Shown piece by piece: positions 2,729 through 4,372 of a DNA stretch of 26,204 nucleotides (position 1 is its first letter; every line of letters begins with the position of its first letter). Below the pieces are notes generated by a model that searched no databases, was not told the origin of the DNA, and saw nothing but the letters and a program-made list of their open reading frames with translations. The translations under genes were made by a program, and so were the position numbers. The stretch is from an uncultured Candidatus Saccharibacteria bacterium (GTDB lineage Bacteria > Patescibacteriota > Minisyncoccia > Minisyncoccales > Staskawiczbacteraceae): the NCBI GenBank assembly GCA_964373565.1, contig CAYJVF010000002.1:1-26204 (forward strand), given 5' to 3'.

Positions 2729-4372
2729 TTAATAGTCTTCTCCGCCCATCATCGGCATTCCTCCGCCCATTCCTTTTTCTTCTTTCTTTGGCAACTCTGA
2801 AACAACCGCCTCCGTAGTTAAAAGCATACTGGCCGCCGAAACTGCGTTTTCCAAGGCGGTTCTGACAACTTTTGTAGGGTCAACCACGCCTGCTTTTATT
2901 AAATCTTCATACACCATCGTTTGAGCATTAAATCCAAAATCCCCCCGTTCTTCACGAACTTTTTGCGCCACAACCGCCCCGTCAATACCGGCATTTTGGG
3001 CAATCTGTCTGATTGGCTCTTCCACCGCCCGTTTTAAAATATTAACGCCCGTTTGTTCGTCTCCCTCCAATTTCAAGTTTTCTAGAGCCTGCGAAGCCCT
3101 AAGCAAGGCAACTCCACCTCCTGGCACAATTCCCTCTTCAACAGCAGCTCTCGTTGCATGTAAGGCGTCTTCTAGCTTATGCTGTTTTGCCTTTTGCTCA
3201 ACTTCGGTGGCGGCACCCACTTTTATTACTCCAACTCCCCCAGACAATTTTGCCAGTCTTTCTTGTAATTTTTCTTTATCCCAGCCAGAGGCTGGTCCGC
3301 CTTTGGCGGAAAAATCTATTCCTTTTCGAATTTGGGCAATCCGTTTTTCAATTTCTGCTTTTTCGCCCTTGCCTTCAATAATAGTAGTATTTTCTTTGGT
3401 GGCAATTACTCTTCGAGCATGCCCCAACATTTCCAATTCCACATTCTCAAGCTTCATGCCTTTTTCTTCCGTAATCACCTGCCCTCCGGTTACTGCGGCG
3501 ATATCTTCCAGCATTTCTTTTTTCCCGTCGCCAAACCCGGGAGACTTTACAGCCAGCGCGTTAAATATCCCGCGCAATTTATTGACAATTAACGTGCTCA
3601 AGGCATCGCCTTCCACATCATCGGCAATAATGACCAATTCCTTTTTGCCCGCTTTGATTATTTTTTCCAAAATAGGCAGTAATTCCGGCAAAGCGCCGAT
3701 TTTTTTATCCGTAATTAAGATATATGGCTCTTCCAGTACCGATTCCATTTTTTCTGCATTGGAAACCATGTAATGAGAAATATATCCGCGGTCAAATTGA
3801 AGCCCTTTTACAATTTCTTTTGAAAGCCCGAATGTTTTTGATTCCTCAACGGTAATGACGCCATCTTTGCCTACTTCTTCCATAACCTGGGCAATCATCT
3901 CGCCCACTTCTTTTTCCTGCGCGGAAATAGTAGCCACCTGTGAAATTTCTTCCTTGGTGCTTATGGTCTTGGACATTTCTTTTAATGAGGCAATAATGGC
4001 ATCTTTGGCTTTTACAATACCCTTTCTTAAAGCCAATGGATTGGCTCCGGCGGCCACATTTTTTAGTCCTTCCGTGGCGATTGCTTGGGTCAACAAAACC
4101 GCTGAAGTCGTGCCATCGCCAGCGATGTCGTTGGTTTTTGAAGCCACTTCTTTGATTATTTCAGCGCCAATATTTTCTGTCGGGTCTTCCAATTCAATCA
4201 CCTTGGCAATAGAAACTCCGTCATTGGTAATGGTGGGAGAGCCATAGCTAGACCCCAAAACCACATTCCTGCCCTTGGGCCCCAATGTTACTTTCACGGC
4301 ATTGGCAACTTTGTCTAAGCCATTTTTCAGCGCTTTGCGCGCATCTTCTTTAAAAATTATTCGTTTGCTCAT
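2729..4372 (-). CDS. groL: Chaperonin GroEL
   Basis: [23 protein letters not shown] and GGGVALL motifs plus the GGM tail. Start placed at MSKRII (4372). Confidence 0.99.
3281..3310. repeat. 30-nt double-hairpin element in-frame in groEL (encodes [10 protein letters not shown])
   Basis: CCAGCC-AGA-GGCTGG directly followed by TCCGCC-TTT-GGCGGA. Both are perfect 6-3-6 hairpins and the element is aligned to codon boundaries. Confidence 0.8.

Follow-up and report, generated by a model that had tools for sequence, protein, structure and literature searches.

A putative miniature double-hairpin insertion element in the groEL gene of an ultra-small groundwater bacterium

The groEL gene of an ultra-small groundwater bacterium contains, in codon phase, 30 nucleotides (nt) that form two abutting hairpins and that are, with a probability we put at about 0.8, one copy of a miniature, non-autonomous palindromic insertion element. 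We refer to this element as DH (double hairpin), a name of our own. Its general form is TCCGCC-N3-GGCGGA repeated twice, with a purine-rich loop in the first hairpin and a pyrimidine-rich loop in the second. The gene is located in the window, which is the whole 26,204-nt stretch of DNA analysed here and constitutes contig C2 of assembly G000 (558,709 bp, 83 contigs, 37.5% GC). G000 is the source genome of the window, and its closest named relatives are metagenome-assembled genomes (MAGs) of Candidatus Staskawiczbacteria. Other G numbers denote the genomes compared, and L numbers the loci extracted from them.

A 30-nt insertion in GroEL

The coding (minus) strand of groEL reads GAT TTT, TCC GCC AAA GGC GGA, CCA GCC TCT GGC TGG, and GAT AAA. 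An earlier sequence-only reading of the window had described two abutting perfect hairpins here, each with 6-bp stems and a 3-nt loop (3310–3296 and 3295–3281) and in the codon phase of groEL, and this is the sequence found. The number expected by chance in the window is about 0.01 per hairpin pattern.

Comparison with relatives shows these 30 nt to have been truly inserted. None of 29 GroEL orthologs from relatives, of which 17 belong to the same genus and 12 to other families of the order, has extra residues here, and all read xxTSDF followed by DKEKLQ. A further 80 GroEL loci were taken from public genomes. Of these, 69 could be read cleanly through the stretch; all 69 are without the insert, with a spacing of 55 residues as compared with 60 in G000, and no insert was visible at the DH site in the remaining loci. 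Relatives have an uninterrupted GAT TTT GAT AAA GAA, and in G000 GAT TTT and GAT AAA GAA border exactly the 30 nt. Upstream of the insert, G000 has IRKGIDF where relatives have IKKEMEQSTSDF. The simplest history for these sequences would be a 30-nt insertion at TTT/GAT (here and below, a slash within a target site marks the insertion point) along with the loss of 15 nt just upstream, amounting to about five residues between KKEM and DF.

The net gain of about five amino acids that the sequence-only reading had proposed is borne out by this comparison. Its account of that gain, a single inserted unit with ASGW mimicking TSDY, would however need about seven substitutions to turn native codons into a second perfect hairpin, whereas a 30-nt insertion and a 15-nt deletion suffice. 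The stem of the second groEL hairpin, CCAGCC/GGCTGG, recurs in G099 (L102), a genome of a different family, so this hairpin probably came with the element. Neither of the two contrary findings named in advance was made: the peptide is not conserved in relatives with codons that form no hairpins, being absent from every ortholog examined, and the DNA motif has other copies, as described below.

A HMMER comparison with solved chaperonins places the insert at the loop that reads TSDY/DREKLQERL. By E. coli numbering, counted from E386 and D398, D352-F353 presumably correspond to D359-Y360, and D364-K365 to D361-R362. A ColabFold (AlphaFold2) model of GroEL built with 28 orthologs is of moderate confidence (mean predicted local distance difference test score, pLDDT, 66.8). 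It has a helix at residues 338–356, coil at 357–363 (pLDDT below 50 at 360–362), and a helix at 364–377. With regard to the tolerant surface positions associated with Rickettsia palindromic elements (RPEs), the GroEL insert is located in a low-confidence coil between two helices. The model suggests that the insert extends the loop that links apical helices K and L, immediately ahead of residues equivalent to those lining the closed chamber. D361 and E363 are cavity-exposed residues of the GroEL:ES cage (PMC13751682). The earlier proposal of a selfish repeat tolerated in a surface loop therefore stands as to a repeat tolerated in a chaperonin loop; this loop is not merely outer surface, as it abuts the equivalents of D361 and E363.

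DH is dispersed in the genome and across the phylum

The pattern TCCGCC-N3-GGCGGA has 12 perfect matches in G000, compared with about 0.003 expected from base composition, and most of these are abutting pairs bordered by T-runs and A-runs. A search with an nhmmer profile built on 54 copies yielded eight strong 30- or 31-nt copies in G000, including the one in groEL (all E≤3e-7). Seven of the eight are located in long open reading frames (ORFs), always in the frame TCC GCC NNN GGC GGA. Their host genes are groEL, dnaK, dnaG (primase), miaA, ybeY, a P-type ATPase gene, and a gene for a 179-amino acid (aa) protein of unknown family. More than 30 host genes were found in relatives, among them those for an epimerase, AhpC, class I and class II aminoacyl-tRNA synthetases, FtsK, UvrB, a DHH phosphoesterase, and a PD-(D/E)XK nuclease. 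The likeness to RPEs drawn by the sequence-only reading is supported by this multicopy occurrence of a palindrome in frame in unrelated genes (7 in G000 and >30 in relatives), and the genome search it had proposed gave many further copies, both in G000 and across the phylum.

With up to two mismatches allowed, the 30-mer occurs in 13 of the 26 genomes of the genus and in 59 of 401 genomes (40 of 245 genera) of the order, at up to 21 copies per genome. With at most one mismatch, it occurs in 26 of 401 genomes of the phylum. The pattern read backwards, which served as a control, had no match in any genome searched. DNA uptake sequences number hundreds to thousands per genome (about 1 per kb), as compared with 0 to 21 copies for DH. 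A phage vector was considered and set aside, as only two exact matches were found in 2.9 million viral contigs.

The groEL copy is present on Logan contigs of four sequencing runs from two studies, and in these contigs both groEL halves extend nearly through the element. The summed depth over the groEL stretch rises from ~85 to ~7400 exactly at positions 3278–3331, with loose, unrelated ends on both sides. DH is therefore present on hundreds of further contigs in these metagenomes.

Some genes contain more than one copy. A glutamate-dehydrogenase-like gene in G753 (L208:1567–3027) has three DH insertions, of which two give SAKGGSASGG and the third PPKADPPRAE, and a TsaD-like gene in G099 (L122:1444–2664) has two. 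Multiple copies in one gene suggest local reinsertion or very tolerant hosts. In G395, identical perfect DH copies are located ~10 nt upstream of the starts of two tandem thioredoxin-like paralogs (L086:1501–1530 and 2545–2574), and the element was presumably duplicated along with the gene. A composite or autonomous element was sought among DH pairs 0.3–1.2 kb apart (G395, G099, G324, G264, and G243); these are tandem paralogs or multiple insertions in the same gene, and none encloses a gene.

The conserved object is DNA that forms two hairpins

In the 54-copy alignment, the two-hairpin model is 97.4% paired and has 12 double-change cells, distributed over 5 of the 12 base pairs. None of 500 shuffles reached any of five measures of this pairing. 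A model with a single long hairpin, in which unit 1 pairs with unit 2, has no double changes and performs no better than shuffles. The alignment thus shows that the conserved feature is two 6-bp hairpins, preserved by compensatory substitution. At least eight compensated stem variants occur (CCCGCC/GGCGGG, TCAGCC/GGCTGA, TGCGCC/GGCGCA, TCGGCC/GGCCGA, TCCACC/GGTGGA, TTCGCC/GGCGAA, TCTGCC/GGCAGA, and CCAGCC/GGCTGG). At the miaA copy, which is orthologous in G000 and G003, a GCC>ACC change is uncompensated, so pairing seems to be selected in propagating lineages and not at resident sites.

Positions that are synonymous in the encoded peptide are ≥90% invariant across the 54 copies. From the codon usage of G000, the probability of TCC GCC nnn GGC GGA given the peptide SAxGG is 0.0045, and five of the nine SAxGG peptides in G000 have exactly these codons, as compared with 0.04 expected. 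Codon comparison thus shows that the DNA, and not the peptide, is the conserved object.

A motif native to DnaK resembles a DH unit. Ten residues before the DH insert of G000 DnaK, the SADGG motif (L051; G000 C63:2493–2507) is encoded by TCC GCT GAT GGC GGA, and relatives use other synonymous codons for it. Gene conversion of this motif was considered, but the variation is only synonymous and nothing can be inferred from it.

DH enters at TTT/RAA-like sites without target duplication

The miaA site, TGG TTT/AAG, is empty in four relatives and filled in G000 and G003, which share this copy by orthology. Relatives likewise provide empty sites for other G000 copies, namely TTT/AAA CAA in dnaG, TTT/GAA AA in ybeY, and ATG/GGN in dnaK. 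Conversely, G000 has the empty allele for insertions of relatives in ftsK and the DHH and PD-(D/E)XK genes (TTT/AAA) and in uvrB (TTT/GAA). In nine empty/filled comparisons, groEL included, the difference is a precise 30-nt block, with no duplication of the target and no loss of a flanking codon. The flanks of the 54 copies are mirror-symmetric ([T/A]T[T/C] on the 5' side and [A/G]A[A] on the 3' side), with T at position -2 in 46 copies, A at +2 in 52, T or C at -1, and A or G at +1. These comparisons show that DH enters genes as an exact 30-nt block at TTT/RAA-like sites without target duplication. A link to restriction through the central GGATCC was considered; this hexamer is neither avoided nor enriched (40 observed and 35 expected).

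Reading phase

Fifty copies have a longest spanning ORF of ≥100 aa. Forty of these, out of the 54 copies sampled, are in phase 0 (SAxGG), six in phase 2 (PPxAD), and four in phase 1, several of the last being visibly intergenic. In the coding DNA of G000, TTTRAA occurs 658 times in phase 0, never in phase 1, and 653 times in phase 2. Phase 1 is lacking because TTT/RAA would there read the stop codon TAA or TGA. The 40:6 ratio of phase 0 to phase 2 is not accounted for by the supply of targets (p=3e-7), which argues for translation of the element and for selection against the proline-rich reading.

A degenerate copy in the groES-groEL spacer

The spacer upstream of groEL contains a degenerate relative of DH at positions 4444–4475. 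As the sequence-only reading had noted, this copy has the extra bases A4455 and T4464 and a GGACG/CGTCC stem. Its edit distance to DH patterns is 4–5, and two block-shuffled genomes had no site at a distance of ≤5. The family profile gave no significant nhmmer match to it (E=36). The copy shares an extra A (GGACGGA) with two other intergenic copies, which represent a 31-nt variant seen only outside genes. The spacer copy is thus probably a degenerate member related to this non-coding variant, a placement suggested by edit distance and the shared indel and not by the profile.

The RNA of the spacer (4391–4511) is predicted to fold with -44 kcal/mol (z=-5.2), and none of 200 shuffles was as stable; the degenerate copy is at the center of this fold. 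The entire spacer is a long imperfect hairpin of TCCGAAT/ATTCGGA words. Coordinates of the groEL copy and of neighboring features are collected in Table 1.

Table 1. Positions of DH and associated features in the window (or, where a contig is named, elsewhere in G000)
Feature	Position	Strand	Remarks
DH element, 30 nt	3281..3310	-	In codon phase in groEL, encodes 10 residues; nhmmer with family profile E=2e-8
Hairpin 1, TCCGCC-AAA-GGCGGA (S-A-K-G-G)	3296..3310	-	Consensus unit; stems identical to 12 perfect genomic copies
Hairpin 2, CCAGCC-TCT-GGCTGG (P-A-S-G-W)	3281..3295	-	Two fully compensated pair changes relative to consensus
Target 5' half, GAT TTT (D-F)	3311..3316	-	GAT TTT GAT AAA GAA contiguous in relatives
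Target 3' half, GAT AAA (D-K)	3275..3280	-	From comparison with relatives
Putative 15-nt deletion junction	about 3317/3316	-	Just upstream of GAT TTT
groEL ORF	2729..4390	-	Probable start ATG at 4369; PDB matches down to E=1e-201
groES	4512..4802	-	96-aa ORF directly upstream of groEL, which we take to be groES from its sequence
groES-groEL spacer	4391..4511	-	Long imperfect hairpin of TCCGAAT-type words around degenerate DH copy
Degenerate DH relative, 32 nt	4444..4475		Refolded as one central hairpin GGACG/CGTCC; edit distance 4-5
31-nt variant	C3:6995-7025 (L052:1996-2026)		Beside tRNA gene
31-nt variant	C9:7488-7518 (L048:1489-1519)		Overlaps miaA start codon, amid tandem AATTTCA heptamers

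Mechanism and alternative explanations

In the mechanism we propose, DH would spread as DNA, by way of an intermediate that forms hairpins and is probably single-stranded; the enzyme acting on this intermediate would be provided in trans. Copies would persist only at sites able to accommodate a Ser/Ala/Gly loop of 10 residues, phase 1 being closed by the stop codon in TTT/RAA and the proline-rich phase being selected against. The insertion point in GroEL would correspond to the junction of E. coli Y360 and D361, within the loop that connects apical helices K and L. The adjacent five-residue deletion, either simultaneous or later and compensating, would limit the net gain to five residues.

Several points weigh against an insertion element of this kind. 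No gene that moves DH was found in our analysis. The stem sequence is extremely conserved across the phylum, which is unusual for junk DNA and could mean a host function. Logan contigs break at DH; none covers it together with 31 nt on each side, none joins across an empty site, and no filled/empty polymorphism within the population was seen in them. Copies were found by a mismatch-limited pattern, so that diverged copies are under-sampled and sub-families inflate the cell counts given above. Translation of the groEL insert is suggested by the phase bias alone, and the model that locates the insert in GroEL is of the moderate confidence given above.

The question of the moving enzyme leads to the most substantial rival, in which DH is an intragenic form of the repetitive extragenic palindromes (REPs) or REP doublets forming hairpins (REPINs), or a minimal derivative of the insertion sequences (IS) IS200/IS605, and is inserted 3' of TTT in single-stranded DNA by Y1 (HUH) transposases resembling REP-associated tyrosine transposases (RAYTs). 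Precise insertion without target duplication beside a short fixed sequence, with hairpins at both ends, is the behavior of IS200/IS605 elements. G000 has three Y1_Tnp matches, two of which are intact RAYT-like genes (213 and 240 aa) with HUH motifs, and in G753 a Y1 gene is located ~1 kb from the gene with three DH copies. Across the order, Y1 genes occur in 47 of 59 DH-positive and 165 of 342 DH-negative genomes (odds ratio 4.2, p=8e-6), but this association takes no account of relatedness or of overall repeat load, and within the window's own family there is none (6/11 versus 8/12). Moreover, 12 of the 59 DH-positive genomes of the order have no Y1 match; G798 (7 copies) and G772 (6 copies), both 98% complete, also have none, nor does G099 (5 copies). 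None of 31 Y1 loci inspected is bracketed by DH, these loci having palindromes of their own or none, and the GTAG/CGTC tag of REPs is absent from DH, whose flanks are TTT and AAA/GAA. We consider movement by Y1 transposases unlikely for these reasons. An extension of the insertion-element explanation, which we find somewhat easier to entertain but still doubtful, is that DH represents a minimal class of mobile DNA, consisting of two 15-nt hairpins and moved by a non-Y1 enzyme found throughout the Patescibacteria. Such an element would be a natural source of loop-insertion mutations in essential proteins and would place seven extra loops per GroEL ring near the charged chamber wall.

Somewhat less probable again is a cis-acting signal that benefits the host, whether as RNA hairpins that stabilize or process mRNA or pause ribosomes, or as a DNA site for a conserved protein. 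The near invariance of the stem across the phylum and the compensatory changes that keep it paired would fit such a signal, as would intergenic copies that adjoin tRNA genes or stand just before start codons. On both strands, DH has its T-run 5' and its A-run 3' of the hairpins, and it is hence no intrinsic terminator, which would have the T-run after the hairpin. A beneficial signal accords poorly with the patchy distribution (0 to 21 copies per genome, with most relatives having no DH), with the unrelated nature of the host genes, and with the uncompensated decay of the orthologous miaA copy. Compensated variants recur as sub-families in distant genomes, as would be expected if selection acted on propagation and not on the individual site.

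Two further explanations concern the protein, and we give both very little weight. If the 30 nt were removed from the RNA or bypassed by the ribosome, GroEL itself would be unaffected. DH is highly structured and has a length that is a multiple of three, and some yeast mitochondria are known to bypass GC-rich palindromes termed "byps". However, phase would then be irrelevant, which is at odds with the 40:6 ratio at equally common targets; the 31-nt variant is seen only outside genes; and the GroEL insert comes with a five-residue deletion, which is to be expected of a loop that is actually present in the protein. Even less credible is that S-A-x-G-G-S-A-x-G-G is a selected flexible-linker peptide whose palindromy at the DNA level is incidental. 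Ser/Ala/Gly loops are benign and could be useful, but the invariance of synonymous positions, a codon choice 100-fold off genome usage, and the presence of the same DNA in other phases and between genes all speak for the nucleotide sequence, and no homologous peptide with non-hairpin codons was seen at the same sites in relatives.

Relationship to known repeats

No published description of DH was found in the literature searched, which contained only analogues (REP/RAYT systems, tagged REPs, coding palindromes in nematomorph mitochondria, and hairpin elements in sponge mitochondria). DH is thus apparently an undescribed, very small palindromic selfish repeat inside genes and, if our reading holds, the smallest in-frame selfish insertion element known to us.

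In behavior, DH is close to RPEs, which are said to have been described by Ogata et al. in 2000 as elements of about 100–150 bp and are reportedly restricted to Rickettsia. Like these, DH is a palindrome dispersed among housekeeping genes, where it keeps the reading frame and would add a peptide to presumably tolerant parts of the protein, and it has no transposase of its own. It is set apart by size and host, as it has 30 nt (two 15-nt hairpins), a TTT/RAA target, and a phylum-wide distribution in Patescibacteria. REPs and REPINs with RAYT transposases, as portrayed in two papers (PMC2817692 and PMC3733652), are likewise short, GC-rich, and often paired palindromes, and DH-bearing genomes contain RAYT-like Y1 genes with flanking palindromes. 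In contrast to DH, which is mostly intragenic and untagged and flanks none of the 31 Y1 genes inspected, REPs are extragenic, carry the GTAG/CGTC tag, and flank their own RAYT gene.

Palindrome-associated transposable elements (PATEs), which are miniature elements derived from IS200/IS605, resemble DH in inserting without target duplication beside a short fixed sequence and in having hairpins at both ends. The known ones are asymmetric, longer, and TnpA-dependent, whereas DH is a near-perfect palindrome and also occurs in genomes without a Y1 gene. Mitochondria provide a likeness in size. Double-hairpin elements and GC clusters of fungal mitochondria have reportedly been described by Paquin et al. 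in 2000 and in related work, and to our knowledge mitochondrial hairpin elements have not been reported to follow a strict target or phase pattern. These are tiny repeats, rich in GC and forming one hairpin or two, in compact AT-rich genomes, with some copies in coding regions, and differ from DH in being organellar and in sequence, the comparison being one of descriptions. They include the repetitive hairpin elements of sponge mitochondria (PMC2800124).

If the insertion-element reading is true, DH would be widespread in a phylum of otherwise extremely streamlined genomes, and essential proteins (GroEL, DnaK, primase, aminoacyl-tRNA synthetases, UvrB, and FtsK) would have been repeatedly remodelled by DNA-level parasitism. 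The defined target (TTT/RAA) and structure (two 6-bp triloop hairpins) would provide a starting point for a biochemical search for the mover. In the annotation and alignment of proteins of the Candidate Phyla Radiation (CPR), 10-residue DH loops would not be taken for lineage-specific adaptations, and the GroEL copy would be a natural test of how much the chaperonin cavity wall tolerates.

Other palindromic repeats

A second dispersed perfect palindrome, ATACGGGATCCCGTAT, has at least 11 copies in G000 with similar AT-rich flanks. One is located in the window at 12565–12580, and others include C6:12757, C9:7405, C13:4615, and C26:1741; one is ~80 nt upstream of the DH copy in the miaA leader. 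Another GC-rich hairpin insert, 21–45 nt long with the ends CCTGCC(CG)...(GCAGG)CGGG/GGCAGG, occurs in frame in relatives, at dnaK of G015 (L057), dnaG of G018 (L065), and GroEL of a Staskawiczbacteria MAG (L134). Its sites in dnaK and dnaG are the loops in which G000 has DH.

Most RAYT-like Y1 genes inspected have their own palindromes, which differ from gene to gene and often stand on both sides, the classic REP-RAYT arrangement, here in CPR genomes. The Y1 loci comprise L079:449–1171 (G000 C1), L078:24–665 (G000 C65), and L110–L121 in other genomes. A 47-nt palindrome, GTAGTAAGGCTTAGCC, adjoins the Y1 gene on C1 of G000.

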